A DNA stretch of 64,000 bases, from NCBI GenBank assembly GCA_036172245.1, contig JAYWIR010000084.1, positions 124,001-188,000 on the forward strand. Direction: 5' to 3'. Position numbers and translations under genes: made by a program. The DNA comes from Raillietiella orientalis (taxonomy: Eukaryota). Positions 1 through 48,579 of the stretch are shown here, piece by piece. Positions within the stretch are counted from its first letter, which is position 1. Every line of letters begins with the position of its first letter. Under the pieces are notes generated by a model that saw only the letters and a list, made by a program, of their open reading frames with translations, was not told the origin of the DNA and ran no database searches.

Positions 1-291
1 TCTCTGTTGACACAGTCAACAGCGAGGGGAGCGAGCCGGCGGCGGCGTCCGTCATCGACACCACCATCGATGAAGTAGCCTTCGCGCGAGCCGCAGAGAA
101 GCTGGCAGCTTCGTTGCAGCCAGAACCCTCCAAGGCTGGCAAGAAGGCCGTAAGGCGTCCGGCCTCCCCTCAGGAGTCCCCCACTTCCGACCCCAAGGTG
201 GAGGCCGGAAGCGCAGCCTCCGTTTGCACGGCACCGCGCAAGAAGGCTGGACGTAAGTCCACAAAGCCAAGGAAGCTCGTCTCCCCCGTCG
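1..291 (+). mobile_element. C-terminal part of an A-family LINE ORF1 (duplicate of 3654-3944), cut by the window edge
   Basis: Near-identical to 3654-3944 (about 5 substitutions by eye). Encodes ...ELAASLQPEPSKAGKKAVRRP...KPRKLVSPV and ends in the same GTCTCCCCCGTCG junction sequence (279-291). Confidence 0.9.
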
Positions 292-2395
292 TTATCACCC
301 GGGTACGCCCGGGGTGTTTATTAATGAACTTTACATGCGTGGTACAAGGTCCCACCACGGCCGTAAACACAGGACCTGTCGGGACACCGGGACGCAGCCC
401 TGCATGGCACTCCCCGACAGCGAAGAAGGATGGGGATAAGACAAAAAGAAAAAGAAAAAGAAACAAACAAAAAGAAGTTGGAGGGCAGGGAAGGGATCAC
501 TGTTCGCTGTGGAGAGGGACCATCCGTCGAACGAAGCCCTCGAGGTCAGTCTGCATATTCCCCAGTTGGGGCCATCCGGCAGCTCTTCGCAAGAAGCGTT
601 GGGCATACGGGATGACATCCCTCGCCTGTGGACCCACTCCTTCGTTGTTGGCGTCGCTCCATGCCGCCACGATGCCACGGACGCAGCACAAGGCTGCGAT
701 GGCTGCGGCTGGCTGCAGTGCGTCCTTCACGAAGAGGGGCCGAAGAACGTCTCTGGGGGTGCTGCCCGTAGGGAGCCCGAGGGTCGTCCCGAACCGTTCC
801 CAAAGGGGTCGGAGGGCAACACAATCCACAATAAGGTGGGGAAGCGACTCCCGCTCCCCGCACCTGGCACACGCAGGATCCACAGCTCCCCTCGTCCAGT
901 GGAAGCGGCGCGCGTTGCAGGGTAGACCCCAGTGCAACAAAAGCAACGCCGACTCTTGCCACTTGAGGGGCAGGATCCTGGATTCTTTCATCACCGGGGG
1001 CCACTTCAGCTCATCCCTGGGGATGGCGAGCAGCTCGCCCCCTTTTTAATAATGCTCGCGGCTGGACGCTCGGGCTCGTGGCGTCAGCCAGTTCTCCTGT
1101 TGTCCAGCCGCTGATCAACTTCTCGCGTCCATCGTTGCAGCAAGAGACTTGCCACCTTGGCGTCCGGCTGCTGTGATGTGCCCTCTTCAGGAAGGGCAGC
1201 GCCGTAGCTAGACAGGTCGTCTCTGCCCACGTGCATCTTGCTGGACTCTCCAGGAGATTCCGCAGCGTGCAGCGGGCGTAGGGGCTGTATCGGAGACGAT
1301 TCCACGTCTCGTGGCTTGTCTGGTTAACCACTTCTCACGTTCCAATATTTTCCTCCAGCCAGGCGGGGGAGTTGGCGGGGCAGCAAACCATCCAGCTGTT
1401 CTCCTTGGCCAATGTTGCCATGCGCCCGAGCAGTAGGCCGCATCTTCGCATCTTCCGGCCACGGCTGAGAAGAAAAGACGCGAGTCCATCGCACCAGGAC
1501 ACACGGCTGGCCAGGAGGCGGGCTGGAGTGCACCAAGGGGTGCACCACATCTTCGCTGCGATGGCGAGGGTTCGCCACCGCAGCTGCTTCTCACGCGCTC
1601 CAGCGTCAGGAGGCCAAGACCGCCGTCCCGACGCGGAGCGCACAAGTCCTTCAGAGGCACTCGGGGCCTACCCTTGCCCCAAAGGGCGATACGGAGGAGG
1701 TCCTCTGTCCTCTTCTTTGTTTCCACGGTGGGGAGGCAAACAAAAAGCAAGGGGCAGAGGATGGGGGCCGCGAAAACGTTCCAAACCGCGGCCCATTCCT
1801 GCAAGTGGAACTTGCCTTCCAGGAACGGGCCCATCGCCGTCTCGTCTTTTTGAAGGCAGCTGGACCACGCTTCCGCAGGGGAGTATTCCCCCAACGGCAC
1901 ACCAAGGTACTTGAAGCACCTCGCCGTGGAAATCCCCAGACGGAACCAGTCCTGCTGCCCTGCCCACGCGGCACCTATTGGCACAACCGACGACTTCGCC
2001 CTGTTAACCTGCAGTCCGGTCCTGCGGCTGAGCAGATAGAAGAAGTCTCCAACCGCGTTTAACGGGGTGGACATTGGCAACAAGAGCAGAAGATCGTCGG
2101 CGTACGCTGCTACGGCGGGCGTGCCGGGGCACAGGCTCGGCAATGGGGCCAAAGTCACCCTTCACGCTCTCAGCACCAACTCAAAGTAGGTGCTGAAGAG
2201 CAGGGGGCTGAGGCTATCTCCCTGCCTTATGCCCCGCCGCACCGGCACGCCATACACCTTGTGACCGCTGAAAGAGACGGTAATTATCGCATTCCGCCAG
2301 CAAGAGCGCAGGTAGGAAATCAGGGAGGGTGGAAAGCCCATGCGACCCAGGAGCTCCAAGAGGAGTTCCTGGTCTACACAGTCGAACGCCTTGTG
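292..2395 (-). mobile_element. 3' half of L1/Tx1-like element B: RT from KAFD onward, zf-RVT-like C-terminus, 3' UTR (the distal part may be a B/D recombinant)
   Basis: Minus-strand translation gives HKAFDCVDQELLLELL, GIRQGDSLSPLLF, YADD (2093-2104), FKYLGVPL and CARCGERESLPHLIVDC, with stop at 497. A T-rich 3' UTR follows, with a terminal hairpin at 296-316. Contains stops and frameshifts. Confidence 0.92.
2382..2395. repeat. Left 14-bp TSD of element A (TCGAACGCCTTGTG)
   Basis: Exact copy at 9366-9379 and the flanking bases differ. On the minus strand it reads CAC AAG GCG TTC GA (H-K-A-F-D) of B's RT. Confidence 0.95.
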
Positions 2396-2406
2396 CGCTC
2401 TAGGGC

Positions 2407-2413
2407 GGACGTG
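2407..2413 (+). promoter_or_regulatory. GGACGTG motif near the element 5' end (DPE-like, putative internal promoter)
   Basis: The same heptamer occurs at the 5' ends of C (14330-14336, -) and B (12898-12904, -). It matches the RGWCGTG downstream promoter element described for Drosophila LINE promoters. Function is inferred. Confidence 0.45.
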
Positions 2414-3931
2414 CTTTCTCGGTGCTCCTCATGCCAGGAAGTCTCCCCCAGTGCAAGCGTCGTGTGGTTCGGTGGTCGATCAGGCAGCGATGCCTGACGC
2501 GACCACCAGGGATGGCCAGGGGGCAGCGGCAATGCCGCCCCCAGAGGCGATGGAGAGCCAGGGGGCGGCGGCAACGTCGCCCCCAGAGGCGGTGGAGGTG
2601 GGGGCATCCGCCCCCACAGATTCGGTCCCCGCTGCGGCGCTGGCATGAAGCGCCGTTGTGTCGGCGCCATCGCCTGCAGCCGCGGCGGAATTGTCGTCAG
2701 ATGGGGAGGAGGCGGCGAATCATTGTTCGAATAGTGGTAGGCAATTTGTGGCCCTGGAGAGCGCGCGCGCCTTCTCAAAGGGCATGCGCGCTCTCGATGT
2801 GAAAGAGGAGGAGCTCAGCGCTATGACCATCCGCAGCGGGGGTCAGTACGTTGAGGTCATCTGCAAACATGCAGAGCTGGCCCAACGACTGCTTAAAACC
2901 CCCGTTGTGATGGGGACGCGCAGGCTCCTCCCCACTACGGCGGACCGCAGCATGGTGGTCCACCTGTTAGGCGTCACCGCGCGAATGCGCAAAGAACAGG
3001 TTCGCGCCGCTTTGGAACAGTTCGGAACGGTCCACGCGCAGTGGACGAAAGTAAGTCCTTTCGAGAACTACACGGGGCTGCAACACGGCCTCACTGCTGC
3101 GCGCGTGACCGTTCGGGAAGGCTGCACTTTTCCCCACAAACTGGTGGTCGAAGGCGAAACCGTCGACCTCTGGTATGTGGAGAAGCCGAAATACTGTGGC
3201 TTCTGCAATACGTCGGGCCACCTCAAAAAGAGGTGTCCCAATGTGCAGTGCCAAGTATGCGGCACAATGGACCACACGAGGGAGGTGTGCCCAAAAGCAG
3301 CAGCGCGGGTGGTTTCCAAGAGAAAACTTTAAAAACGCGCCCGGCTTCTGCAGAAAAGGCTGGCGGCGAAAGCTCTCGCGAAAGCTGTGCCACCCGCGCC
3401 CAAGCCCAGGCCGCACCCGAGACCCCGGCGACCAACGCCGAAAAAGTTGAGGGAGGCGGCCAGGAGACTGGGTGGCAAGTGGCAACGGCCAAAAAATTAA
3501 AGAAGGAGAGGAGGATGGAAAAGAAAATCGCCTACCAACAGAAGAAGAAAGAGCAGGGTAGCGCGATAATTAAAGACTGCAGCGTCGTTGTCGAACGCGT
3601 AATCGATGTTGCCGAACGCTGCCGGAAAGAACTAGCCGCTACCGACGACCTCTTCTCTGTTGACACAGTCAACAGCGAGGGGAGCGAGCCGGCGGCGGCG
3701 TCCGTCATAGAGACCACCATCGATGAAGTAGCCTTCGCGCGAGCCGCAGAGGAGCTGGCAGCTTCGTTGCAGCCAGAACCCTCCAAGGCTGGCAAGAAGG
3801 CCGTAAGGCGTCCGGCCTCCCCTCAGGAGTCCCCCACTTCCTACCCCAAGGTGGAGGCCGGAAGCGCAGCCTCCGTTTGCACGGCACCGCGCAAGAAGGC
3901 TGGTCGTAAGTCCACAAAGCCAAGGAAGCTC

Positions 3932-3944
3932 GTCTCCCCCGTCG
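3932..3944. repeat. Left 13-bp TSD of element D (GTCTCCCCCGTCG)
   Basis: Exact copy at 5337-5349. Confidence 0.95.
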
Positions 3945-5336
3945 TTATCACCCGGGTACGCCCGGGGTGTTTATTAATAAACTTTTCATGCGTGGTACAA
4001 GGTCCCACCACGGCAGTAAACACAGGACCTGTCGGGACACCGGGACGCAGCCCGGCGTGGCACTCCCCGACAGCGAAGAAGGATGGGGATAAGACAAAAA
4101 GAAAAAGAAAAAGAAACAAACAAAAAGAAGTTGGAGGGCAGGGAAGGGATCACTGTTCGCTGTGGAGAGGGACCATCCGTCGAACGAAGCCCTCGAGGTC
4201 AGTCTGCATATTCCCCAGTTGGGGCCATCCGGCAGCTCTTCGCAAGAAGCGTTGGGCATACGAGATGACATCCCTCGCCTGTGGACCCACTACTTCGTTG
4301 TTGGCGTCGCTCCATGCCGCCACGATGCCACGCACGCACCACAAGGCTGCGATGGCTGCGGCTGGCTGCAGTGCGTCCTTCACGAAGAGGGGCCGAAGAA
4401 CGTCTCTGGGGGTGCTGCCGGTAGGGAGCCCGAGGGTCGTCCCGAACCGTTCCCAAGGGGGTCGGAGGGCAGCACAATCCACAATAAGGTGGGGAAGCGA
4501 CTTCCGCTCCCCGCACCTGGCACACGCAGGATCCACAGCTCCCCTCGTCCAGTGGAAGCGGCGCGCGTTGCAGGGTAGACCCCAGTGTAACAGCAGCAAC
4601 GCCAACTCTTGCCACTTGAGGGGCAGGACCCTGGATTCCTGAAGAAGCGGGGACCACTTCAGCTCATCCCTGGGGATGGCGAGCAGCTCGCCCCATCTTA
4701 CTAATGCTCGCGGCTGGACGCTCGGGGTCGTGGCATCGGACAGTTCTCCTGTTGTCCAGCCGCTAATCAACATCTCGCGTCCCTCGATGCAGCAGGAGGC
4801 TGGCCACCTTGGCGTCCGGTTGCTGTGAAGTGCCCTCCTTAGGAAGGACAACGCCGTAGCTAGGCAGGTCGTCTGTGCCCACGTGCATCTTGCTGGACTC
4901 TCCAGGAGATTCCGCAGCGTGCAGCGGGCGTAGGGGCTGCATCGGAGACGATTCCACGTCTCGTGGCTTCTCTGGTTAACCACTTCTCACGTTCCAATAT
5001 TTTCCTCCAGCCAGGCGGGGGAGTTGGCGGGGCAGCAAACCATCCAGCTGTTCTCCTTGGCCAATGTTGCCATGCGCCCGAGCAGTAGGCCGCATCTTCG
5101 CATCTACCGGCCACGGCTGAGAAGAAAAGACGCGAGTCCATCGCACCAGGACACACGGCTGGCCAGGAGGCGGGCTGGAGTGCACCAAGGGGTGCACCAC
5201 ATCTTCGCTGCGATGGCGAGGGTTCGCCACCGCAGCTGCTTCTCACGCGCTCCAGCGTCAGGAGGCCAAGACCGCCGTCCCGACGCGGAGCGCACACGTT
5301 CTTCAGTGGGACTCGAAGCCTCTCCTTGCCCCAAAG
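3945..5336 (-). mobile_element. 5'-truncated LINE copy D (ORF2 C-terminal region plus 3' UTR) inserted antisense into A ORF1
   Basis: Encodes LWGKERLRVPLKNVCAPRRDGGLG ... CARCGERKSLPHLIVDC, with stop at 4150. AATAAA plus hairpin at 3949-3975. Flanked by the 13-bp TSD. Confidence 0.93.
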
Positions 5337-5349
5337 GTCTCCCCCGTCG
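5337..5349. repeat. Right 13-bp TSD of element D
   Basis: Exact match to 3932-3944. Confidence 0.95.
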
Positions 5350-5565
5350 AAGGGGAAGAGATGGCTTCCGCAAGCGAGGGTGCCATGAGCGTGGGAAACT
5401 CTCGGGACCCGTCGCCCGAGAGACTCCCAAGCTCGGACACGCAGGGGATGGAGGGGTGGAGGCCGAACAGGTTCCTCAGGTGCCTGAGAAGGCCGAAACA
5501 CCCATGGAAATCCCGGCCGCCTCGCAAGAGGAGGGCTCCCCCACACCTTAATCTTCCCAGCAGTA

Positions 5566-8500
5566 ATGCCGGGAATCTCATCCCGCCTTCGTCTGCGCAT
5601 CGCCGTTTGAAACGTGAACGGCATGACAGACGCCGGCAGGAGACGAGACGTGGCCGCCCTTCTCGAGTCCTACGACCTTGCGCTGCTGCAGGAGATCCAC
5701 GTGATCTCTGCAGAACAAGCACAAGAGATCGAACGCATCTCCGGAGGGTGGCTATGGTACAGGTGTGGGAGACCGAAAAGTTGCGGTGTCGCCTACCTTC
5801 TTCGGCCAGCCGCCGAAGACGCAGCTCGGGGCGTGCGGTTCGACGATCACGGTCGTGTCGGCCAGCTGACTCTCAGGTGGTCCGACTCGATCGACCTGAT
5901 CGTCACGAACGTGTACGCACCGAGCGGCGCGGACCTGATGAACAGGAGGGCGAAGAAAGAGTTTTTCCTTGCCATCCGTCGAGACTGGCTGGCCGAAGCA
6001 CGCGTGCGGAATGCCCATCTGGTTGCAGGCCATTTCAACGTTCTCCTGAAACCAGATGGGCGGAATCCCGAGCGTGAGCTGGTCAACGAGGTGTGCATGG
6101 CGGTGCACACCTGTAATTTGTTAGCCAGTGTACCGGGGATGGAAGACAGCATTGACCACGTGTTTCTTCACGAGCACCTGTGCCCTCGCGTGGGCAGGCG
6201 CGGCAAGTTACCGTGCGAGCTGTCCGACCATCGCCCGCTAGTCCTCGAGATTTATTCGCGCGACAGGGGCCCCCCCTCGTCAGCGTGGCGTCTCCCAAGG
6301 GACTCGATGAAGCACCCGGACGCGGCGGAACATCTCCCCACGTTCATACGGAGCTTCAGGCTGCGGACGCTCCAGGATTCGGACCGCTTCAAGCGGTCGG
6401 TCCAGGAGTTCTGCGACCAGTTCCCTCCGCACCGCCTACCTACGGGTTTTGGGACCGGGGTCCGTAACGAACGAGCCTACCTGCAGGCCCGTCTTTACTC
6501 CAGGACCCCCGACATCCGCAGGCTGGTGGAATACAAAGTGGGAGCAGAGAGGCAAGCCTGGCTGTCCGGATCGGCCAGCTTACTGGACGATCAAGGCCAG
6601 GAGCACTCGACACATGCTTAAATCCGCGGCCTGCTGCGGAGTTACTTCTCCTCCCTGTATGCCAGGGCACCTCCGGAGAGGAACGTCTCACGACTCCTGC
6701 TTCTGGAAGGCGCTCCAGCGATCGGGAAGGAGCAGAGGAAGATCCTCGACGAGCCTTTCACGATGGACGAGATCCTCTCGGCCATCGGAAAGCTCACGAG
6801 GCGAAAGGCTCCAGGGGAGGCGGGCCTGCCCGCGGAGTTTTATCAAACTTTCCCGGCTAAGCTTACCCCCCTGGTACTGCAACTTACCTTGCTGATACGC
6901 GAAACAGGTGACGTTCCCGCCTCGTTTCGTTCGGCAAAGGTGCGGCTCCTTCCTAAGAGAGGAGATCTGAGGAGCATGAACAACTAGCGTCCCTTCACAA
7001 TAGTGAATGCGGACGCCAAGTTGCTGGCTAAGGTTTGGGCAGAGCGTATGGGACGGGTTGCCAACATCTTCATCAGCCCGGAACAGACATATGCTGTTCC
7101 CGGGCGAAGCATGGAGGCGAACCTGTTCCACGCTTCCACCTGGCTAGAGCTCCAACATGAAAGGAGCTTGGTGCGCAGCCGGAATTCCGGTGCGCGCGCC
7201 TGCAAGGGGTTGGATGGTCGGGTGGGTTAGGGAGCCCTTGCGGTCGCAATCGAGTTGCAAAAAGAATTCGATTGCGTCGACCAGAATCTCCTTCTGGAGC
7301 TCCTGGAACGCTTGGGCTTTCCGGTCTCATTAGTGGCCTATCTGCGCTCCTGCTGGCGCAACGCGCTCATCAATGTTACTTTCAGCGGGCAGACCGTGCA
7401 CGGCGTGCCGGTGCGGCGTAGGATCCGGCAGGGAGACAGCCTGAGCCCCTTGCTCTTCAGTACCTACTTTGACATGGTACTGAGAGCATACAGGGAAACT
7501 CTGGCGCACCTGCCGCACGACTGTGCCGGTACGCCGGCCGTTTCAGCATACGCGGACAACCTTCTGCTGCTGCTCCCTATGTCCACCCCGCATGCGGCGG
7601 TCGAGGAGTCCTTCGACCTGCTGCATCGGGGAACCGGACTTCCGGTGAACAGGGCGAAGCCGTCCGTGATGCCAGTTGGTGCGGCGTGGGCAGGGCTGCA
7701 GGACTGGGTCCGTTTGGGGATCTCCACGGTGAGGTACTTCTAGTACCTTGGTGTGCCGTTGGGGGACTACTCCCCTGCGGAAGCGTGGTCCGTCTGCCTT
7801 CAAAAAGTAGAGACGGCAATCGGCCCGTTCAGAGGCGGCAGGTTTTTCTTGCCTGAACGGTTTCCGGTTTGGAACACGTTCGCGGCTCCTCTTCTCCGCC
7901 CCCTGCTTTTTGTTCGCCCCCCCACAGAGAGGATTAAAAAGCGGACAAAGGACCTCCTCCGTATCGCCGTTTCGGTCAACGGGAGGGCCCGAGTCCGCTT
8001 AAAGGACTTGTGCGCTCCTCGTCGGGATTGTGGTCTGCGACTCCTGACGCTGGAGCGGCTGGAGCTTCAGCTCCAGTTCCGCTTGTCGGCACTCGTTCCA
8101 GAGTTGTGGTGCACCTGTTGGTGCGTCCCTGCACGTGTCCTTCTCCAGCAAACCACCGGCAAGACGGGACTGACGTCGTTTCTTGCACTCCGTCGCCGCG
8201 CCAACCGATGCGGACTCCAGCTTCAAAAGGTGGCTGCGCTGTATCGGAAAAACCCAAGATTGCTCACCTGTCGCCCGTTTAACGGTAGTTTCTGGTTGCA
8301 GGAAACCGTTCGAACGTGGGGACGGTTGGGCATGCAACGCTCCCAACAGGAACGAAGGTTCCTGTTTTGGGGTTACAGAAGTTGCACGCTCCGCGAGATC
8401 CTGGAGGATCCAAAGAAGAGAGCGTGGGCAGGAAAAACCCCCCTCGCTGCTGCGCTGCCCTCCCTGATGGAAGATCTGGACAGCGATGTTGCGGCGAAGT

Positions 8501-9146
8501 GGGTGGTTACAGTAACAATCTCGGAAAAGGAGAAGAAGATAGGAGAGTGAAAGACGGGGCAGTTAACAGACGCTGCGACCCCGAGTACGCCTCCCAATGG
8601 ACTTCTGCGCTGAGGCGCGCTGCTCGATGTTCCCATTGAACATCTGAAGTGGCCCCGGTGCTCATGAACACCTCCGCCCTCCCCTTAAAATGGCAGGAGT
8701 CGGCTCTCCTGTTGCAGCACTGGGGACTCCCCTGCAACGCCCGCCGACACCGCTGGACCTGGGGAGCGGTGGACCCCAATTGCGTCAGGTGTGGGGAACG
8801 GGAGTCCCTCCCCCACCTGCTAGTGGATTGTGTTGCCCTTCGGCCCCTTTGGTTTCGCTTTGCCGCGGCCATCGGAATCCCCTGCGGCAACCCCAGGGAC
8901 TCACTCAAAGCCCTCTTCGTTGCCGACGCCCTTCGGCCAGCGCCCTCGTTAGCAGCTTTGTGCTGCCTACGCGGGATCGTCACCGCTTGGAGCAAGGCTA
9001 CGGTAGGACAACGCGACCAGAGTGCCATCCAGCCAGCCTCCCAGTTCCTGAGGAGAGCGTCGCGATGGCCCCACCTGGATCCAAGCATGCAGAAAGAGCT
9101 TGCCGGCATCCTGCGAACGATTCAACGGCCCCACCAGCAACTCTGA
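5566..9146 (+). pseudogene. Element A ORF2: AP endonuclease, reverse transcriptase and zf-RVT-like domain (inactivated)
   Basis: ATG at 5566. EN motifs (W>stop)NVNG, LLQEIH, NVYAP, AGHFN, IDHVF, SDHRP. RT motifs APGEAGLPAEFY, N(W>stop)RP, KEFD, IRQGDSLSPLLF, YADN (7549-7560), YLGVPL. C-terminal CVRCGERESLPHLLVDC. Several in-frame stops and one frameshift near 8645. Confidence 0.93.
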
Positions 9147-9334
9147 TCCCTACCCGTACCCTCCCAGTTTTTTTCTTTTCTTTTTGTTTTGTTTTTTTGT
9201 TTTCCCCCTTCCCTCTGCTGCCGTGGTGGACCGTGCCGGTCTGAGAACCGGTGACCCGGAAGGCTCTGTGTTTCTTCGTGCGTGGCTGGAGCAATGGTCC
9301 AGCCACCGCACGTCTTTGTAATAGTTTATTTTCC

Positions 9335-9365
9335 AATAAACGCCCCGGCGGTAGCAGGGTGAAAA
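9335..9365 (+). other. LINE 3'-terminal signal: AATAAA, GC-rich hairpin, short A run
   Basis: AATAAA CGCCCCGGCGGTAGCAGGGTG AAAA immediately precedes the TSD. Related hairpins occur at 296-316, 3949-3969, 16437-16456 and 49173-49192. Confidence 0.75.
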
Positions 9366-9379
9366 TCGAACGCCTTGTG
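9366..9379. repeat. Right 14-bp TSD of element A
   Basis: Exact match to 2382-2395. Confidence 0.95.
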
Positions 9380-11065
9380 GAGATCGACTGCGAGCTCAAG
9401 GGCCCCCTTCCCGCACGGGGTCCCATCCCAGCCCGGTTGGCGGCCCCAATGTGGGGTTGCTGACTTTCCCTATCCCTTTCTTTTCTCTTCTCTGCAGGTG
9501 CACCCATGTGCTTGCGAAGAAGAGGTTGGCATCCATACTTCGCCCGGGAACAGCATAAGTCTGCTCCGGGCTAATTACGGATTCTGCCACCTGCCCCAGA
9601 CGCGAAGCCCATAGCCCTGCTATCAACTTGGCGTCCGTATTCACGATTGTGATCGGACGCCAGTTCTTTAAATTCCTGAGGTCTCACCCTTTCGAAAGGA
9701 GCCTCACTCTGGCTGACCGAAACGAGACGGGAACATCGCCTTCGTCTCGGATCAGCCTGATCAACTTAAGCAGCAGGGGTGCCAGCTCTTCCGCGAAGCT
9801 CTGAAAGAACTCCGCGGGCAAGCCGTCTTCCCCTGTAGCCTTACGCCTCTTGAGCCTTTTGATACCGCCGAGAATTTCGTCGGTGGTAAAGAGCTGCTCG
9901 AGGCTTTCCATCTCCTCCTCCCCTATTGCCAAGGCGCCATCTGGAAGCAAGCGCCGAAAGGCGTTTCGATTCGGGGGCTCCGTGGCGTAAAGTGAGGAAT
10001 AAAAACTCCTTACGAGATGCCGTACCGACGCCGGTGACGAACATTCCCGGCCCTGGTCGTCCAGCAAGCTGGCCGACCCGGATTGCCAGGCTTGGAGTTC
10101 GGCCCCGGGGCGGCACTCGGCCAGGCGACGGATATTAGAGGTTCTCTCGTACCTACGAGCCTATAAACAGGCCCGATGGTTGCAAACACCCTCGCCAAAT
10201 TCGGGAGGCAGGCGATCAAGGAAGAACTGCTCACACAACTTGCGCACCGATTCCTTAAAAAGTTCCCAGTCCTGGAGATTCCGGAGCGTGACGCCTCTCA
10301 GGTATTCGCGAAGGTGTTTCTTCGCGCCTGGGATTCGCGTCCAGCCCCCCGGCAGACGCCAATCCATCGATTGCGGTCCCTTGTCACGAGGCCGCATCTC
10401 GAAAATTAACCGGTAATGGTACGACAACGTCGACGCAACCCTCCCCCGTTTGCCGACTTGTGAACACAGTTCAGCGTCGAGGAAGACCTGCTCGATGCTG
10501 CGGACCATTCCCTTCTCACCCGCGAACAAGTTCCACGCACGCATGGCGGCGCACAACTCGTTCATCGCGTTTTCTTGTGTTTCTGGCTCACCTGTTAGCA
10601 GACGGAGATTGAAATCTCCCGCTATCAGGAGAGCCTTCCGCACGCCTGGGTTCGCCAGCCAGTCGCGCTTCAGGGATTCAAGCAGCCTGGTACGGTTGCT
10701 GTATCCCTTTTGAGGCGTACACATTCGTGACGATCAGATCGATCGAGTCGGACCAGCCGAGTCAGCTGACCGACCCGACCGTCGTCATGGAAGCGCACGC
10801 CCTTCACGGCAGCGTCGATGGCCGGCTTCACGAAGAACGCGACCCCGCAAGTGTTGCGGATGCCGCATTGCCAGTACAGCCGAACTCCCGGGATCGTCTC
10901 GATCTCCTCGACGTCTGCCGCGGTAATCACGTGGATCTCCTGCAACAGGGCCAGGTCGAGCTCACGGAGGGTGTCGGCTGTATCTCGCCTGTTTCCGTCG
11001 TCGCGCAGTCCGTTGGCATTCCAATAGGCGGCGCGAATCCGACGGCGACTGGGGAGCCCAGGTGT
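9380..11065 (-). pseudogene. Element B ORF2 N-terminal part (AP endonuclease and RT domains up to KAFD)
   Basis: Motifs YWNANGL, LLQEIH, IAGDFN, ATGEDGLPAEFF, NWRPITIVNTDAKL and EQTYAVPGRSM. Contains frameshifts and stops. Confidence 0.9.
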
Positions 11066-12818
11066 TACTCCTGGGAAGATGGCAGTGCGGCGTCCGCAAC
11101 CTGCTAAGGCGAAACGCTAGGTGGAGGAGGGGGTCGGGTGCTGAAGGCACCTGGTCCCCCTCCTCCATAGGAAACTGTACGTCGAACGGATCGCCCACAG
11201 GTGGGGTCGCGCCTACCTGTTCGCCCTCCTGCATGGAGGCGGGCTGTTCAGGGTCGGCGCCTGCAGGGGGGACTTCACCCCCCTGTTCACCCTCCTCCAT
11301 GGGGGTTTCCGGATCGACGGCTTCCGAGCGTGGGATACCCTCCTCCGAATTTCCCACGCTGGCGACGGCTTCCGTCTTCTCCTCCTCGCTGGTGGAGGGG
11401 AGGCGCCTCCTGGGCATCTGGGAGTTGCGTCCCGACTTCCTGGGGGGTGCCTCCGAGGAGGAGGAGGGTGTACTTCCGGACCCCAGGTCTAACTCACCTG
11501 TGGGGGCCTTCTTCTCCGGAGCCGGCCTTCGCACGGCCTTCCGCGAGGGGTTCTCACGTTCAGCCAGCGTGACCGCGAGCTCCTCCGCCGCCTGCTCGAA
11601 CGCGGCGTCCGCGGCTTCGACCGCCGCTATGTCGCGCGGCTCACTCTCTGTGTAAACAGAGAATTCGCCGTCGCGAGCCTCGGGTGCAGCGGAAACGGCA
11701 AAGAAAGGATCGATGCTCCGGGTGGCAATCTCGGGAACGACGATTCGTTCCATTGCCACCGTGCACTCGCGTAGAGTTTTCGAGCGCGGAACGGGTTTTT
11801 TCGGCTTACCGATCGTCTTGCACCCTTTGCTCTCCGCGGGTGAGAGTTTCCTTGGCTTTCTGGCCTCTACAAGCTGCCATCCCTCTTCGCCTTCCACCGT
11901 TTGAGAAGGTTTATCCTCCGGCTTACGCGCCGGAGGTTGAGGTGTTGGCAGCTTGTGCTGGCCCTTTCCTACTTTAGGTCTAGAGACCTTTAAAGCGCGT
12001 TTCCCCTGCGCTTTTTTCGCGGCAGGGGGAACCGGGGTGGGGCGTTTGGGGCACACGCGCCGAACGTGGCCCCGCTCCCTGCACAAATGGCATTGTATAT
12101 TGGGACACCTTTTACGTAGGTGTCCCACGGTATCACAATGCCCGCAATACCGGGGCTTCCCTACATACCACAGGTCGACGTTTTCTTGCGCCACCTGTAG
12201 TTTGTGGGGAAGCCTACAATTCTCCCGTACGGTGACCCGCGCTGCAGCCTGCCCACCAAAAAGGCTATCAAAGCCGTCGAAAATGGAGGGTTTCGGCCAC
12301 AGTGCGTGCACCTCACCGTACTTCCGTAATTCCACACCAACCGCTGACCGCGTCATGCGGCTGGTGATGCCAGTCATGTGGACCACCACGGAGCGCTCCA
12401 TTGATACTGGCAGGATCTTTCGGCCGTCTACGTTCAGCGGCGCATGGATAAGGCGATGAGCCAAGGTGACATCTTTGCAGACCACCACGACCCACTGCCC
12501 GCCGCTGAGGACGGAGAGGCCGTCCAGATCCTTCTCTGTGACATCCGCGTCCTTCAACGCTTTGCTGAAGGCGCGCGCTGTCCGGCCGTCAAACAAGTAG
12601 CCTACCTGGTACACAAGCGAAGGCTTGCACCCGGAGGCCTTGTATGCGGCCATCTCCGCCATGGCTTCTGCGCTGGGCGCGGCCACCATGGCGCTCCATG
12701 TCCTCGGCGTGGCCGGGGATGATTCCGGGGCGGCTGCCCCTGCTCCAGTAGGCTGTGGGGGCGAACTAGCCTCCCCAACTCCCACCTCCATCGCGGTGTC
12801 CTCTGGCGTCGTGGCCAT
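11065..12818 (-). CDS. Element B ORF1, gag-like nucleic-acid-binding protein with two CCHC knuckles (open except a probable frameshift near the C-terminus)
   Basis: ATG at 12818 (MATTPEDT) with long open frame and knuckles CGHCDTVGHLRKRC and CHLCRERGHVRRVC. The presumed original stop (PSSQE-TAA, 11065-11067) is now out of frame, so the frame reads to 10962. Confidence 0.75.
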
Positions 12819-12904
12819 TGGACACCGACGATGTACACAAAACACCACACAGAAGAAAAAGCGCTTTCCTACTACTCTTTGGGGAGTGAAGGAAAAACAC
12901 GTCC

Positions 12905-14347
12905 TCCTACTGGCCGCGGAGGGGTCTGGCTGCAACGATGCAGCCAGCTCCTCCACCGCACGCTCGAAGGCGGAGTCATCGATCACGGTCTCGATGACGG
13001 ACGATTCCGCTGGTTCGCTCCCCACGCGGTTGACATTTTCAACAGTGGATAGCTCGTCGGCAGCAGCGATTTCTACCTTGCAGCGTTCGGCGGTAACGCG
13101 TTGCACGAAGACGCTGCATTCTTTCAAATTCTTGCTAACCTGCTGTTTTTTATTTTGGTAGGCGTGCTTTTCTTCAGTTCGTGGTTCTTTCTTCGACCTT
13201 TTTTTTTTCGGTGTGGCTTCTTGCCATTCCGACACCTGACCGCTTTTGTCGATCTTTTCGGCATTCGTTGCAGGGGTTTCGGCTGAGGACTGGACCACGG
13301 GAGCGGGTGGCACAGCTTGAGCGGCAGCCTTCGCCGCCAACCTTTTCTGTAGCAGCCGCGCGCGTTTTTTTAGGTTCCTCGCGCAAACTACGCGCACCGC
13401 GGATTGTGGACACACTTCCTTCGTGTCCCATTGTCCCGCATACCTGGCACTGTACGTTGGGGCACCTCCTTTTGAGGTGTCCCGACGTGTTGCAGAAGCC
13501 ACAGTATTTGGGCTTCCCCACGTACCAGAGGTCGACGCTTTCTTAGCCGACCACCAGTTTGTGGGGAAGGGTAGAGCCCTCTTGAAGGGTTACACGGGCA
13601 GCCGTGAGGCCGCACTGAACTGTGGTATAGTCCTCGAAAGGACTAGGCTTGGTCCATACTGCATGGACCGTGCCTTCTTTTCCCAACGCGGCGCGTAACT
13701 GTTCTTTCCGCATCCGTGCGGTAACTCCTAAAAGGTGGACCACCATACTGTGGTCCGCCGTAACGGGAAGGAGCCTGCGTGTCCCCATCACCACGGGGGT
13801 TTTGAGCAGACGTTGGGCCAGATCTCCATGTTTGCAGATCACCTCTATGTACTGCCCCCCGCTACGAATGTTCGTTGCGCAGAGCTCTTCCTCTTTAACA
13901 TCGAGAGCGCTCATTTCCTTCGAAAAGCCGCGCGCACACACAGAAGAATACAAATTTCCTACTTTGTAGAATAGTGATGGGTTACACCCCTCTTCTACAT
14001 AGGCAGATAATTCCGGCGCGGTTGCAGGCGATGGCGCCGACACGACGGCGCTCCACACCCGCGCTGCAGTGGGGACCGGTTTTGTGGGGGCGGACGCCCC
14101 CACAACCTTCTCCACTGAATGCGACGTTGCCGCCGTCCTTTGGCACTCCAACTTTTCTAGAGGCGACGTTGCCGCCTGCACCTGGCAGTCCATCTCTTCA
14201 GGAGGCGACGTTGCCACCGCCCCCATACACGCACTGGTGGTCGTGTCAGGCATTGTTGCCTGATCGACCACCACCACACACGAAGCCTACACCTAGGGAC
14301 GGTTCCCGGCACGAAGAGCACCGAGGAAACACGTCCGCTCTAACCGA
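12905..14347 (-). mobile_element. 5' part of element C (A-family): 5' UTR and ORF1 up to ...SLQPDPSAAS
   Basis: The 5' UTR aligns with 2396-2489. ATG at 14253 (MPDTTTS) and knuckle CGFCNTSGHLKRRC. Clear ORF1 homology to A, with two frameshifts (about 13545 and 13425). Confidence 0.9.
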
Positions 14348-16460
14348 CGTATAGCTTTCGATTCCTTCGACCAGGAGCTCCTTCTGGAGCTGCTGGAACG
14401 CATGGGTTTCCCTGCCGTGCTTCAATCTTACCTGCGCTCCTGCTGGCGCAACGCCTCAATTAATATTGGTTACAGCGGCCGGCACGTGTACGGCGTGCCA
14501 GTGTGCCGCGGCATCCGACAGGGTGAAAGCCTGAGCCCCTTGCTCTTCAGCATCTACTTCGAGTTGGTGCTGAGGGCATACAGGGTAACTCTGGCAACGC
14601 TGCCGAGCTCGTGTGCCGGCACGCCTGCCGTGTCAGCCTATGCAGACGATCTTCTGCTGCTGCTTCCCGGGTCCACAGCAACGTGTACGCTCGAGGACTT
14701 CTTCGAGTTGCTGCGCCGCGGCACGGGCCTGGAGGTGAACAGGGCGAAGTGATCGATGGCTTGTGTTGGCTCGGCGTGGGCTGGACGGTCGGAATGGATC
14801 CGCTTGGGGATCCCCACGGGCATGTGCTTCAAGTACCTTGGCGTTCCCTTGGGAAACTTCTGCGCAGCAGAAGCCTGGTCCGACCGTCTCCAAAAGGCAG
14901 CGTTCGCGATCGGTCTGTTCCAAGAAAGCAAGTTCTACTTGAAGGAACGGGCCGCGGTGTGGAACGCGTTTGCGGCCCCCCTTCTTCGCCCCCTACTTTT
15001 TTTTTGCCCCGCCCCTTATTTTGTTCGAAAAAGAGCAGCGGGTTTCCTGAGCACAGTCTTTTGGGGCAAAGGGAGGTCCCGTGTGAGGCTCAAAGACTTG
15101 TGCCCTCCACGTAAGGACGGAGGACTTGGCGTACTTACGCTGTAGCGCATGGAGCTCCAACTTCGATTCAGGATTCTCGCTCTCGCGGTCGAATTGTGGG
15201 ACACGCCTTAGTGCGTTCCAGCACGCCTCCTCGCCTAACGAGCCTGCGGATTCGGCGGACTTAAGTCGTTTCTGCTGGCGCGCGACCGCAGAGAAGCACA
15301 CAGCGGCTTTCTGCTGCGTCGCATGTACGTAGTAGTACGGGAGAACGCCTGGATCTCCTGCCTCCCAGGGAACTACTCGGCATGGTTGCACGAGTCAGTC
15401 TCCACCTAGGAAAAGATCTACGTACCGGCGGGCACAGAGAACACTTGCCTGAAAAGGCATGCTTGCTGGGCGCTGCAGGAGAGCGTGCAGTCCCACGACA
15501 AGCTTATGTGGACTTTGATAACCCCCTTGCTCCAGCGCTGCCATTTTTCATCAGTGCCAGGGACAGTAAAGAGCTGGGTAAATGGACCGTGTCCTGCACC
15601 GTAAACGAGAGGACACAAGCGATAAAGGCGTGAACTTCTCGGCAGTTGGCAGACGCTGCGTCCCCGAGTGTCCCGCCCAACGGAATACGACGCTGGGGCG
15701 AGCTACTCGGACTATTTCCGGAGGACATGAAGTGGCCCCCAGCGTCCTGGAACAGTGCATTCCTCCACCTGAAATGGCAGGATGTGGCGTTGCTTGTGGT
15801 ACTCTGGGGATTAGCATTCAAAGCACGCCTGCACCACACCACCCGGGGTGCTGTGAATCCTAATTGTGACCGGTGTGGGGAAAAAGAAACATTCCCCCAC
15901 CTTTTCCTTGAGTGCAGCGCCCTCCACCCTTTGTGGGATTGTCTCGCGGGGATCCTGGATTTGCGCGGATGCGGTCCAAAGGACGTTCTGAGGCGCCGCT
16001 TCTGCAGTGACGCCTTGTCCCCGCTCGCTAGTGTAGCAGTCCTCTGCTGCATCAGAGGAATAGTGGCGACCTGGAACGCCACCAGAAGAAGGCGTCAGCC
16101 AACCGGCAACGCCTTACACTGGACTCGCCTTTTCGCGCTCAGAGTCTGCAAGTGGCGCCACTAGGGCGCTGAAAGGACTCAGCTTGTGCGGATCCTGAAT
16201 AGGATGTAGACGACCTGTCCACGCGCACCGTAATCCCTTCCCCACCCTCCCACCCCTACATTTGTTCCCCCCCACATTTGAACTTTGTGTTTCTTTTTGT
16301 TTTTCTTTATTTCCCATCCCCGCGCATCGGAAGGACCTCTCCGGCATGGAGCCAGTAACCACCAACCTGTTTTGGAGTGGTGAACCTTCGAGTTGCCACG
16401 CGACATTTCGATGTAATTTTATTTCAATGAAAGAAATGCCCCGGCACATCCGGGTGTGAA
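14348..16460 (+). mobile_element. 3' half of L1/Tx1-like element E (RT from AFD onward, zf-RVT-like motif, 3' UTR)
   Basis: Begins RIAFDSFDQELLLELLERMGF, then GIRQGESLSPLLF, YADD (14639-14650), FKYLGVPL and CDRCGEKETFPHLFLEC. T-rich UTR, with hairpin at 16437-16456. Confidence 0.9.
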
Positions 16461-19400
16461 TCGTCTACCGCGTCAATGGAGAGAAGTTTTGCTGACGTTG
16501 ATGCCACAGTAGCCGTCAAAGGGGGACCATCGGACGAGTCCGAGTTGCGGGCATACGTAACCCAAGGCTATAGACCTGCTCTCCGATATAAGGTGAGTGG
16601 TTTTCTTTCTGCGCGCGACGGGAATCAGTTCAACGAAGAACTGACCCGTGTTGGCGTGCGGGAGGACCCCCTCGCCATTATACTCGTAAAGGATATGGGC
16701 TATTTCAAGGTGCGTTGCAAAGACGCTGCACTTGTGCAACGCTTGCTGCGCACAACGTTGTCGATACGTGGCCAGAAGGTCTTCCCGGCCGCCATGGATG
16801 ACTCATTCGTGGCGAAGATTTTCGACATCGAGTCCGAAATCTCTGACATTGATATTCGGAACGCGTAGGCGAAATTCGCCACGGTCCATGCGCTGTGGAG
16901 GGTGCGTAGCAGCCTCAAGGACTTCCCGTCCATACACAGCGGAGTCGCTGGAGTCCGGATTACAATGCCGGACCGCCGTCTGCTACCCACAAAACTACAT
17001 GTGAAAGACACGGTTGTTCACCTGTGGTTCGTAAGCAAAGTAAGAACGTGCGAGCAATGCGGGAAGGAGGGGCATTGTTTGGATAAATGACCCTCTGGAA
17101 AATGCCGTTATTGCAAACTATCCGGGCACCAATTGAAAAATTGCCCCGATCTTTTGCGTAAAAAGGCAGCCGCGCAGCTCCATCTTAAGAAACAAAGCGC
17201 GGATAAAAAGATAAAATCTGCGAAAAACCTGGAGACCCCACGGCAGAAATTCCGAAAAAACGCGAGGCGGAATGTCGCCCCAAAGCAGCAGGAAACCTCG
17301 CATGCGAAGCCCTACGCGCCCCATCTCGCGGCAGGAAAGCCGCAAAAGAAAGGGTCCGCGGAATCCGGGGCAATGGTAAGTCCCCCTAGGCGCAATTGCG
17401 GTCCATCCCAAGCACGTCCGGCTCTCTCAAAGTTCGAACAACCGGCGGGGACGCCAATGGACAACGGCGGTAAGGACACTTCCAGCACCGTCAGATCCAT
17501 TCCTTTACCTCCTGCAGTGGCTGAAAAGCCCAAATCGGGTAAGAAGATTTGTGTTCTGTCGACTTCGAAAGTCGGCAAAATAAAATCCTCGTCGCGGTCC
17601 AACACCGCTAAAGCGGAGAAACCTCTCACGCCGTCGCAGTCGGAGAGCAAGCTGTCGACTGGCGCGGATGCCATGCCAACGAAGGGATTAAAAGCCTTTC
17701 CGATGGCAGCGTCCATCACGAGCGTGTCCGAGCCATCGAAAGACTCCCGTCCAAAGACGCGGATGGCTTCAAAGATGGCAATGAAGCAGAATCTCCATTT
17801 ACAGCGCCACGCAAAGTGAGGAACCGTACTGAAGTAAAGAAGACTTCAGCAAAGGTCCCTCGTGCAACTGCGCGTAAGCACGCTGAAAACGAGCGCGCCG
17901 GGAAAGCAGCCGTCACCAAAAGCGATGCACTGGTGACGCAAAATGACAACAGGACAGCTGTCAATCCAGCAGAACCTGTCACTACCTCGCGGAAGGCCGA
18001 AACCCGATCGAACATGCGCCGGTCGGACTCTGAAATGGATGCCGTTCCGCTCACCGAGACGAGGACAACTCGTTCCAAAGCATGTGCGCGCCGATCAAAA
18101 GTAGGCAGCCAGGCAACGCTCCCCGCGAAACAACGCGACGTTTCAACGAAACCCGACGGGGTTAAGCCTGGCGTGGAGGCATTACATGCATTCAGCACGA
18201 CGGAGGACGGTGGCGACCGTCCCCTCCAGCCAGTCGTGCTGCTCCCCGTCTGCTGGCCGGATAAAGCGAGCCAAAAGCCGCCACCTTCCCAGCAGGAATG
18301 CGGGCAATCGCGTCTTCTCGTCCTCTGTCCGTAACGTGTTGGAACGTGAACGGACTACAGAACGAGAAGAGGCGATTAGTAGCCAACGCTCTGCGCCCCT
18401 TCGACTTCGCGCTCCTGCAGGAGATTCACGTAATCTCCGACGAGCAGGCAGCCGAAATCGAGGAGCGCGCAGGCAGAACGCTACATTAGCGGTGCGGCGG
18501 CGCACACACGTGCGGCGTCGCGTTCCTCGTAAGAGCAAAAATGGCGGAAGCGGTGCGTAGAGGCGAACATCCTTTTCGCGTGTACATGGATGCAGCTGCA
18601 GGAAGTCGTGACGCAGAAAAGCCAGGATGCTGCGAAAGTCACAGCCGCAGGAAAGAAGAACAAGCGCCGACGGCAGGAGGAAACGACAGGTGCCTTGGCG
18701 GTCGCGGTCGATCTCCACAAGGCGTTAGACTGCGTAAACCAGAAGCTGCTCTTGGAGCTTATGGAACGCCTTGGGTTCCCGCCGCAACTCCTGCTGTATT
18801 TGCGCGCGTGCTGGCGCCACGCGCTAACCTGCATCACTTTCAGCGTCTGCCGCGTGTACGGTATTCTTGTGCGTAGGGGCATCCGACAGGGCGACAGCAT
18901 AAGCCCGCTGCTCTTTACCATCTTCTTAGAGTTGGTGCGAAGAGCATACAGGCTGACGCTGTCTCACTTGCCATGCTCCTCCCCGGGTATGCCTCCAGTG
19001 GCCGCCAACGCTGATGACCTGCTTCTGGTCCCCATGTCCAACCCGGCGTCCAGTGTCGAGGATTTCTTCGACCTGATTCGTCGGGGAGCGGGCGTGAGCG
19101 TGAACAGAGAGAAGAGCGTGGTCGTTCCTGTGGGTGCGTCGTGGGAGGAACAGTCCGACTGGATCCGCCGGGGGATCCCCACAAGCGGGTACTTTAAGTA
19201 CCTTGGCGTTCCGTTGGGCGCTCTCCGCGCAGTCGAAGCGTGGTCGGACTGCCTACAGAAAGCAGAGTTGCCGTCAGCCCGTTCATCAACGGCAAGTTTA
19301 TCTTGCAGGAACGGGCGACTATTTGGAACACATTTGTTACCCCCCTCCTCCGTCCCCTCTTTTTTGTTTTGGATCCCCCCTATGCGGCAAAACAGCCGGC

Positions 19401-20700
19401 TAAACGCATGCTTAGGAACGCTCTCTGGAGTCCGGCGAGATCCAGGATAGGCCTTAAAGACTTGGCTGCTCCACGTCGGGATGTTGGCTTTGGTATCCTG
19501 ACAATGGAGCGAATCGGACTGCAGGTGCAGTTCCGACTGCTGGTGCTGTGTGCCCAGCTGTGGACATCCCCCCTCTGTGTGCCTGCACGCATTCTCCTGA
19601 GAAGATGCGCCGGCAGCGGAGGACTGCTCTCGCTTTTGCCGGGCACTCAATACAGGAAGCGAGGTTTTGGGTTTCAATTGCGGCAGTTGACCGCACTTCT
19701 GGAAGCCCAATCCTGGATCTCCTGCCGCCCAATAAACTTCGAAGCTTCGAGGCAGGTGTCTGTGGAATCCTGGGAAGCGTTCCAAGGAATGCGCCCTGAA
19801 GATCTTCGCCCACTGCGCATCTTCTTCCGCGATCTTTGGAAGAAGTACTGCAGGACGAGGTGAAGTTTTCTACCCTGGCTGCCACGCCTCTCGCCGCAGC
19901 GCTGTCTGCTTTCAGGGCAAGAAACGACAGCTGCCAACCGGCAAGGTGGGAGGTTTCCTGCACGATAGCGGGGAAAACAAAACTCCTTGGCGCCTGGAAG
20001 ACAAGTGATTTGGCGGACGCCGCAAATCCTCGTTGTACTTCAAAGGGAGTCCTCCGGTGGGCAGAAGAATTTGCTGTCACCTCCGAAGAACTTGTAGTCC
20101 CTCCACAGTGTGTTGACAGTGCGCTGCTCCCCCTTGCTTGGAAACAAGCCGTGCTGCTCTTCGTTCACTGGGGTTTTCAGTGCAGAGAGCGTTGGCATCG
20201 AGACTCCGGGGGACCTGCAACTGCGTTCTGTGCGGGTCGACGGAGTTCATCCTGCACTTAATTCTGGACTGCGGTGTCCTACAAGGGCTGTGGCGTAGGT
20301 TGGCAACAGCACTAATGCATCCCGTGGACACCGCAAGAGACTTGCTGCGACGATTCTTCACGCCGAGCGGGCTGTCCCTAAGCGCAAGGATTGCAACCAT
20401 CGGTTTCATACGCGCGATAGTTTCCGTCCGCCAGGCGTTGGTAATCCACGGGCAGCACCAAGAGGTAATCAGCAAAGCATCCTTCTACTTGGGAGCAGCC
20501 GCTAGATGGCTTCATTTGACAGAGGAATCAAAAAGGAATCTCGCCGAAATATACCGCCGGTTCACACACGCTCAGCAGCGGCCAACCCGGTGATCATTGC
20601 CCTACCCTCCATAAACTAATTTTGTATTTTCTTTTTACAGCCGCGTCCCCATAGTCTCCGGAACATTTCAGGTGCTCCCCGTTGAAATCCCCGTGAGTAC
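16461..20700 (+). mobile_element. Decayed L1/Tx1-like element F: 5'-interrupted ORF1, ORF2 with internal deletion of about 1.3 kb, 3' UTR
   Basis: ORF1 has knuckles CEQCGKEGH and CRYCKLSGHQLKNC. ORF2 ATG at 18298 (TCWNVNGL, LLQEIH), then jumps at about 18560 to EANILFACTW, VDLHKALD, GIRQGDSISPLLF and NADD. Zinc motif CVLCGSTEFILHLILDC, stop at 20593. The 3' limit is approximate. Confidence 0.88.
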
Positions 20701-29950: not shown

Positions 29951-30499
29951 TCTTGCCTCAAAGCATCTGCGAGCTATGCTCACTAGGGGACACAGAAAAA
30001 ACCAGCAAAGGATGCCGGACTCAAATTCCAGTTCCTTCGGACGCGAAGTGATGGAAAACCACGTCCGCTTCCCGGTAGTCCAGGAGATTTTTCACCTGGT
30101 CACTCAGGGCATTTATCCAATAAATGAAAAAACTTCCAGGAAACGCAGTTCCAGGACATATAGAAAAGGACGTTCAAGGTGGGGACCACCGACACGCAGA
30201 TCACGTACTCTAGAATTTCAGAGCGTGAAAAAGGAAGCTCAGAAGATTTGTAACCCGGTCCCGCCAGGACGTTTATTAAAAACCAGTTGGGAACACCGTT
30301 CCCATCCAAGATATTAAAACGAGGAAAGGAGTCTGCCGGCACGCAGACCGGAATAACGGAAGTTACGAACGGGGCAGGAAAAGCGTAATGGAACCACACT
30401 TCCCACCATAAATTGTGAATTTACTGTGAGGACTGGCAGCAGTGATGCCGCAGCCGCTATCCTATGAGGTTGTGGTAGCCGCAGTCCGAGTTCCTGGAA

Positions 30500-47270: not shown

Positions 47271-47961
47271 AACAATAGCTTTTTTCTAGCACGATGACAT
47301 GTCCGATAGCTTTATCGAGTGATCCATCAACCGTCACACGAATCACTCGTCTTCGTCAGCAAGTCGACTTTGATTGCAACTTTTGTAGGCTGGAGGAAAG
47401 ACCTGAGAGAAGGCGAGCTTGTGAGCGACCCTTTTTTTTTATATCTCTTATACCAGGAGGGGGTCCTTTCTGAGCCAGTCGATCAACCTGAATTAGGAGC
47501 CATCCCAATAACGCGTCTCGTTTCGATTCATAGATCTGCATCTAAGCCTCAAGAAAAATCTCGGTAGCATGGACAATGGAGTTCCTTCGGCGAACAGGCC
47601 TCGGTACAGCTGGTCAAGCAAAAAACCGAGCAGTTGATTGGATTCAAAAGAAACCCAACAGATTGGAAGAGATGTATGCAATCCCTAGGTGAAACAGGGA
47701 GAAACTGTTGTTCCTTGCAAAGATAGGGACTTCATACGTAATAGCAGATGAAGCAACACGGGAAAGATGACCCCACCGGAATAACTCAAGAACAGCACTG
47801 AACCAATTGCAGAGGACCAATCCCGGCGTGAAGTGATCTATTTCCTCCCCTGCTCTCCCACCAAAAACTTTCCCCTCCCTTTTTCAATTCTTCTTGTTTA
47901 TTTTTGTTTCGTTTTTCCCTTCTCCTTCGTCGCTGGACTACCAAGGACTCTGCGATCCTTC

Positions 47962-48351: not shown

Positions 48352-48359
48352 ACACGCGT

Positions 48360-48575: not shown

Positions 48576-48579
48576 TCAA

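Follow-up and report, generated by a model that had tools for sequence, protein, structure and literature searches.

Antisense insertion of related LINEs at the same reverse transcriptase codons in Raillietiella orientalis: a possible site preference

Target-specific long interspersed nuclear elements (LINEs) are known for the genes of ribosomal, small nuclear and transfer RNA, for microsatellites, for telomeres and for one DNA transposon, and Keno, Mutsu and Dewa are sequence-specific families of the Tx1 group. LINEs that nest in themselves are known from algae and fungi. This work is about a 64,000-nt stretch of Raillietiella orientalis (assembly GCA_036172245.1, contig JAYWIR010000084.1, positions 124,001-188,000, forward strand), which we call the window, and about three LINEs in it that we call E, F1 and A. 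The architecture was derived by comparing the window with itself and by comparing proteins with its DNA. Three related L1-like LINEs form a chain in this region: F1 has inserted into E and A into F1, each insertion being antisense. Both insertions lie at the same codons of the host reverse transcriptase (RT), those for K-A-F-D or its equivalent. We believe the best reading is a site preference of the endonuclease, and going by the sequence we would give it an even chance of being right.

Tx1L, which inserts into Tx1D, and R1Bm, which inserts into 28S ribosomal DNA, are described as having highly specific endonucleases of the apurinic/apyrimidinic endonuclease (APE) type, and the same source says that in the Tx1 and R1 clades it is the endonuclease that makes target-specific LINEs of the APE type specific (PMC1950540). 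Transposons appear among the listed targets of such LINEs (PMC4640811). The locus resembles Tx1L in Tx1D of Xenopus laevis, as described in PMC1950540, in that a LINE with a putative APE-type endonuclease has its landing site inside another transposable element. It is unlike Tx1L in that the target would be a protein-coding RT motif of related LINEs, hit in antisense, and where Tx1L has many copies there are two events here. Zepp, an L1 element of green algae, is described as a LINE that 'targets existing copies' (PMC8226300; also PMC3446292), and Cnl1 of Cryptococcus as one that inserts 'within itself in tandem orientation' (PMC9942834). As in both of these, new copies here have landed in older members of their own family group, all four of the readable junctions being LINE-in-LINE. 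Zepp is also described as GC-rich relative to its genome (PMC8226300, PMC3446292), and the LINEs here have about 60% GC against 37-50% in the DNA around them and 37-55% over 20600-64000. However, the Zepp arrays of those accounts consist mostly of 3' ends, whereas in our chain successive elements lie on opposite strands and a single RT codon site is used; Cnl1, in its account, nests in tandem near telomere repeats, whereas the insertions here are antisense and at RT codons. All four junctions are antisense, unlike the tandem arrays of Zepp and Cnl1, though 3' fragments on the same strand do occur at 46.5-51 kb. Literature full texts, a scope that does not take in the original Zepp papers, yielded no LINE aimed at the RT codons of related LINEs.

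The insertion of A is marked by a perfect target-site duplication. The 14-mer TCGAACGCCTTGTG is found exactly at 2382-2395 and 9366-9379 and cannot be extended by one base on either side. These are its only exact copies in the 64 kb, and seven matches are found when up to three mismatches are allowed. On the minus strand it reads CAC AAG GCG TTC GA, or H-K-A-F-D; the translation of the host from 2395 begins HKAFDCVDQELLLELL, and past H-K-A-F-D the frame runs on as HKAFDCVDQELLLELLGRMGF. An earlier note on this DNA, made from its letters alone, had claimed that A is flanked by a perfect 14-bp duplication which is exactly the HKAFD coding sequence of an element B in opposite orientation, and this stands. 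The same note called A full-length. Both ends are indeed complete, but the element is not intact, since four in-frame stops lie in the frame of its second open reading frame (ORF2, 5611-8547) and a further LINE fragment, B2, is nested in it. ORF1 of A has CCHC knuckles in one module. It is followed by an endonuclease region (5611-6618), the RT (about 6580-8412), a zf-RVT-like region (8640-9143) and a 3' tail that reads ATAAAC...GGGTGAAAA. The Pfam family RVT_1 scores 44.8 bits in A and 46.7 bits in E against a curated cut-off of 29.6, with B under the cut-off, and PF13966 (zf-RVT) reaches 25.2 bits in A and 25.0 bits in E, slightly below its 27.5-bit cut-off. No Pfam family matches 5611-6618 at an E-value of 0.01 or better. 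With phmmer against PDB, the same region gives weak matches to L1 endonuclease chains (E-values 7.5e-4 to 2e-3), and together with exonuclease III the matches run from 7.5e-4 to 8e-3 over about 150 residues. The L1 endonuclease matches make it plausible that the nick is of the APE type and has a fixed stagger.

The host of A is one element and not two. The earlier note treated B, whose RT starts at 2395, and C, a LINE with its 5' end at 14347, as separate elements. They are two halves of F1, split by A. C ends ...GALELAVDL at 9380 and B opens HKAFDCVDQ at 2395, so the RT reads straight across A. The joined halves match uninterrupted RTs, namely the database protein P0001 (GALAVAVDLRKAFDCVDQ) and element G of the window (GALAVAVDLHKALDCVNQ); at the join itself these intact relatives read GALAVAVDLRKAFD (P0001) and GALAVAVDLHKALD (G), and it is this match that identifies C and B as halves of F1. 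The uninterrupted site is also present in three contigs of a public run, X1, which pass from 2395 directly into GAGATCGACTGCG, the sequence at 9380-9392. Run X1 consists of short contigs and contains 0.20 of the sampled words; for positions 1-16500, 35 of 630 matching pieces are at least 99% alike and 6 of 422 loose ends are listed. Starting at the 5' end, C and A stay colinear up to the last residue ahead of KAFD, 7128-7267 of A corresponding to 9519-9380 of C, and A is about as similar to B (77.1% in the RT) as to C (76.4% in the 5' part), as expected for one element. Reassembled, F1 is 7,072 nt long. P0001, at 75% identity, is the nearest database protein, and the others among the nearest are 26-32% identical; when P0001 was compared with a genome contig collection it found one distant locus at 26% identity, and with a viral contig collection it found none. 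ORF1 of F1 is an 875-aa frame (13589-10965, minus strand) with an internal duplication: its residues 284-508 match 14100-13423 at 48%, and farther downstream there is another CCHC module, the whole duplicated region being at 10965-14100 (minus strand).

F1 in turn abuts E. Its 5' end at 14347 adjoins the R-I-A-F-D codons of E in antisense: at the junction of 14347 and 14348 minus-strand F1 meets RIAFDSFDQELLLELLERMGF of plus-strand E, and E from 14348 translates as RIAFDSFDQELLLELL. The 5' ends of A and F1 align without gaps, with five unlike bases and then TAG(G/A)GCGGACGTG in both, and both of the A/F1-type 5' junctions in the window are at KAFD. E has several frameshifts and its 5' half lies outside the window. 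Its first codons, CGT ATA, are unlike every other copy, and an E-like contig of run X1 has TCAGCG there. The earlier note placed this junction in identical register to the one at A; the antisense abutment is confirmed, and the register is sure only to within 6 nt. To the right of E and G the DNA is AT-rich and shows no LINE matches, as would be expected if E founded the nest. The RTs of A and F1 are 77.1% identical, those of A and E 73.5% and those of F1 and E 71.8%. A and F1 are the closest relatives among the four RTs compared, the other pairs being at 66-74%. With A, F1 and E at 72-77% from one another in the RT, the nesting is within one family group, and the idea that the hosts were "other" LINEs has to be given up.

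The 5' ends of A (2396-2428) and F1 (14297-14347) are open in antisense in the host RT frame and give the similar peptides PRKHVRPRA/HKAFD and PRKHVRSNR/RIAFD. Most probably this merely reflects the conservation of the 5' end. A protein look-up with the antisense frame that spans the first junction (2063-2494) gave no match among 31 candidates, and with the RT-sense frame across the second (14297-14749) the sole match was P0005, an uninterrupted RT fragment.

In all, the window contains five sites equivalent to KAFD. Both occupied ones read TCGAA(C/A)GC, the empty sites of elements G and H read TCTAA, and the empty site of A itself reads TCGAATTC. These spellings are suggestive of a sequence preference, in very small numbers. 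We considered H, near 50785, as a third KAFD event and ruled it out because its RT continues upstream of the site. The four readable nested junctions use three different sites: KAFD twice, ORF1 once and the endonuclease once. That all four are antisense would happen by chance once in 16. The ORF1 junction belongs to B2, a fragment of 1.39 kb whose 13-bp duplication GTCTCCCCCGTCG is exact at 3932-3944 and 5337-5349 and whose landing site is not a KAFD site. Its empty form is present in two X1 contigs, in which 278 is joined to 5337 with 13 letters in common. At the endonuclease junction, the 3' end of minus-strand H at 49168 is antisense to the endonuclease N-terminus of a plus-strand LINE (49053-49167), and beside H we found no second duplication and no downstream continuation of that endonuclease.

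A 3' tail of the form ATAAAC, a GC-rich palindrome-like stretch and GGGTGA(N)AA is common to four independent elements. As a conserved hairpin the tail is unsupported, since the alignment fold has four invariant pairs and no compensatory change or covariation. Inspection of the sequence revealed no pairing between element ends and target that could replace the specificity of the endonuclease. One metagenome contig, L001, was the sole match there to the 5'-end pattern of A and F1; it has no similarity to the window and is a chance match.

The favored reading can be put as a series of steps. The sequence shows the order of the elements. E, on the plus strand, was in place before the others. F1, on the minus strand, is antisense to it, with its 5' end at the xxAFD codons of E. 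Later A, on the plus strand, inserted antisense into the HKAFD codons of F1 by target-primed reverse transcription and left the 14-bp duplication. The junctions of A imply that the sense strand of the host was nicked first, immediately following ...GCGTTCGA, and that the other strand was nicked 14 bp away. The endonuclease of the sub-lineage would prefer a sequence containing TTCGA in the context of the RT codons, and this preference would make copies of related LINEs its landing sites, each insertion presumably splitting the RT of its host. We infer that an endonuclease with extended recognition, resembling that of Tx1L or R1Bm, may guide this sub-lineage into related RT genes. The RT coding frame of the host is visibly interrupted. 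The site may be a safe landing place, and the guest may gain from inactivating the host RT. A bolder form of the idea is that the endonuclease is tuned to the antisense strand of the K/x-A-F-D codons in the RT of its own relatives, so that siblings would be both a harmless landing pad and competitors that an insertion knocks out, repeated hits would build alternating-strand nests, and the K-E-F-D of A (TCGAATTC in place of TCGAA(C/A)GC) would protect it from its own kind. We offer that form tentatively and would lean against it.

Several alternatives give the junctions another origin. The two junctions might descend from one ancestral composite duplicated in inverted orientation, so that only a single insertion took place. 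A colinear match (1509-3784 against 15235-12918, 73% over 2346 nt) runs through both junctions with no gap, so the spacing from the TTCGA of the host to the TAGRGCGGACGTG of the guest is the same at both; divergence is alike on the two sides, A and C being 76.4% identical in the 5' part (1346 nt aligned) and B and E 71.8% identical over 650 nt; and a duplication that carries a junction with it does occur here (1-1685 against 3654-5337, at 96%). However, C reads in frame into B across the duplication of A, so C is the host of A and not a paralogue. The other junction is made by the 5' end of F1 itself, the element that contains A, which means that the two cannot have been inherited as one. The empty site in run X1 argues the same way. 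A duplication identical at 14 of 14 positions has a probability of 0.012 at 73% identity and of 0.012-0.03 at 73-78%, and the 14 nt nearest the junction are identical at only 4 positions between the two junctions. The claim of the earlier note that A and C, and B and E, are clearly diverged and that two insertions are more probable than an inherited junction is thus upheld, and we regard the composite as close to refuted and its probability as very small. Equally improbable in our opinion is that part of the structure is an assembly artifact in which similar LINE copies were joined into chimeras. Repeats that are 66-96% similar crowd the region, and the run X1 contigs are short, with the few closely matching pieces given above. 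But misassembly joins homologous sequence and does not make exact duplications of 14 bp or 13 bp as at A and B2, and the empty-site forms of both insertions are found in independent contigs. In the 5' inversions of L1 that arise by twin priming, an element has its 5' segment inverted and its 3' segment, beside it, in direct orientation, and the geometry of the C/E junction is like this. C and E could then be the inversion joint of a single antisense insertion at the KAFD codons of the element of B, in which the end of the top strand served as primer at the homologous RT region of the incoming RNA to give C, and normal cDNA gave E, with A hitting the same spot later. C breaks off exactly one codon short of the KAFD 14-mer, and E begins exactly at this 14-mer, so their parts are complementary; an antisense guest RNA would be complementary to the host top strand at the homologous place; and against P0001 both C and E are about 5 points under A while B equals A. 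Unlike in such inversions, the predicted flank is absent: the duplication and the antisense pre-KAFD RT of the host were not found after E, and there are no minus-strand matches to residues 1-229 of P0001 between 16.3 and 47.9 kb. The supposed primer matches E at only 2 of its 6 terminal bases, exact abutment without overlap or deletion is unusual for twin priming, A itself inserted in a simple manner, at full length and with a duplication, and two hits at one site are still required. We consider twin priming improbable, though less so than the composite or the artifact.

A different kind of doubt is whether two hits mean specificity at all. LINEs may pile up in one another through regional targeting or self-targeting, or through weak selection in dead repeats, with an endonuclease that requires a short motif such as TCGA at most and with coincidence doing the rest. 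For uniform insertion into F1, a hit at the same position and in the same orientation has a chance of about 1 in 14,000. F1 has 16 TCGAA on its two strands and 36 TCGA sites, which, should that motif be all that matters, raises the chance to between 1 in 16 and 1 in 72. TCGA is found in the target of B2 too, TT/CGACGG, where the nick is displaced by 1 nt, the four LINE-in-LINE junctions are spread over three different sites, there is a second cluster of LINE 3' fragments at 46.5-51 kb, and both Zepp (PMC8226300) and Cnl1 (PMC9942834) are described as nesting in copies already present. It is important to realize that the locus was chosen as striking from a very large scan of windows, which weakens all raw improbabilities. 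Other points also weigh against a site preference. Only two KAFD events are visible, and for F1 in E the 5' junction alone is seen, with no duplication or first-nick site readable and the break in E fixed only to within 6 nt. The two 14-bp targets are identical at only 9 of 14 positions. Three of the five KAFD sites are empty, including that of A, which has TCGAA. Against P0001, B is at 75.5% where A is at 74.9%, while C is at 66.3% where A is at 70.8%; that C falls below A is unlike the prediction for one element, by an amount within sampling noise. Relatives that share the 3' tail sit elsewhere, in the ORF1 landing site of B2, at the endonuclease N-terminus beside H and, for a fragment at 30247, in non-LINE DNA, but these three are more distant relatives and not directly informative on the A/F1 sub-lineage. 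On the other side, the spacing is equal to the nucleotide at both junctions. Where H and the 30-kb fragment meet their flanks, TCGA is absent, and hence no short motif is evident that all would share. A chance of 1 in 16 to 1 in 72 is still small, and the two guests, A and F1, are the closest relatives, as would fit a property of their sub-lineage. We think the absence of true specificity is unlikely, and it is the alternative we take most seriously. What the earlier note described as a lineage that inserts at KAFD comes down to two antisense junctions at the same codons, which stand, and to a supposed habit of the lineage, for which two events are visible and relatives insert elsewhere.

The left end of the window bears on where F1 ends. 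Positions 1-1685 are a 96% direct copy of 3654-5337, offset by 3,653 bp, with the same ORF1 flank and the junction included. Outside 901-1200 and 1645-1685 there are 23 differences in 1344 nt (1.7%); 901-1200 has 33 of them, 1455-1644 is free of differences, and 1645-1685, the final 41 nt, has 8. The mosaic, as the distribution of differences indicates, is best described as homologous recombination of B2 with the 3' part of F1, the crossover being placed near 1455-1645. Exactly the 3,653-bp offset is expected from an unequal exchange, and a deletion between a sister copy and F1 fits just as well; in either event about 3.65 kb would have been duplicated or deleted and the distal 3' part of F1 replaced, at a time later than the insertions. 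The patch at 901-1200 is possibly gene conversion from a third copy. It follows that 292, which the earlier note took for the 3' end of B, is the 3' end of B2, B being recombinant to the left of about 1645. The candidate that F1 had inserted into the ORF1 fragment at 1-291 was ruled out for the same reason, since this is the junction of B2 with its own 13-bp duplication and the crossover lies near 1455-1645. Given the copy at 1-1685 and the recombinant B, the native 3' end of F1 and its second duplication are outside the window; that end may lie about 3.4-3.7 kb upstream or have been lost. The nesting model predicts that the native 3' tail of F1 would stand beside a 14-mer like CGTATAGCTTTCGA, followed by the plus-strand 5' half of E.

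Other features of the window are given here for completeness, with coordinates in Table 1. Element G, on the plus strand, comes directly after the 3' untranslated region (UTR) of E, and the 3' tail motif of E itself was not found in 16300-20700. G has an internal deletion near 18555 that joins about residue 73 of the endonuclease to about residue 176 of the RT. The endonuclease N-terminus beside H reads NVNGLQDCAKRRR...LQENQISDEQVAK (49053-49197). The minus-strand LINE pieces at 46500-51100 share one orientation and resemble arrays of 3' ends. At 25995-27612 there is a tandem direct repeat of about 808 bp with 75.6% identity, and the GC skew is -0.33 at 26-28 kb. The 60 stop-free frames of at least 110 aa in 20600-64000 had no Pfam family match, hence there is no host gene for context.

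Table 1. Coordinates of the features of the nest and of related pieces in the window
Feature	Position	Strand	Remarks
A-type ORF1 fragment	1-291	+	copy of 3654-3944; ends with the 13-mer GTCTCCCCCGTCG at 279-291
LINE 3' part, B2-derived side of the recombinant	292-1644	-	3' tail 292-321, zf-RVT region, RT C-terminus; 96% to B2
F1, native 3' half of the RT (B)	1645-2395	-	KAFD codons onward; one in-frame stop
Target-site duplication of A (14 bp), left copy	2382-2395		HKAFD codons of F1 read on the minus strand
Element A	2396-9365	+	5' end, ORF1, endonuclease, RT, zf-RVT-like region, 3' tail
B2, 5'-truncated LINE fragment in ORF1 of A	3945-5336	-	antisense; 13-bp duplication GTCTCCCCCGTCG
Target-site duplication of A (14 bp), right copy	9366-9379		exact match to the left copy
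F1, 5' part (C)	9380-14347	-	5' end 14347, ORF1, endonuclease, RT to ...GALELAVDL at 9380
Element E	14348-16284	+	RT from R-I-A-F-D, zf-RVT-like region 15634-16161, part of 3' UTR
Empty KAFD-equivalent site, element G	18716-18729	+	H-K-A-L; TCTAAC not TCGAAC in guest orientation
Empty KAFD-equivalent site, element H	50777-50790	-	E-A-L-D; TCTAAA in guest orientation
Conserved 3' tail, copies	292-321, 3945-3974, 9336-9365, 30247-30276, 49168-49197
LINE cluster, zf-RVT-like pieces	46566-46919, 48589-48929, 49525-49902	-
LINE cluster, RT pieces	47983-48117, 50545-51031	-

If there is no preference, the locus is an ordinary repeat nest plus a coincidence. If the preference is real, a conserved coding motif of related LINEs would be a new kind of LINE target. 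Such a target would be hard to mutate away, would multiply with the family and would be destroyed when hit. Competition between transposon lineages would become testable, and the same preference could explain the origin of alternating-strand LINE nests.

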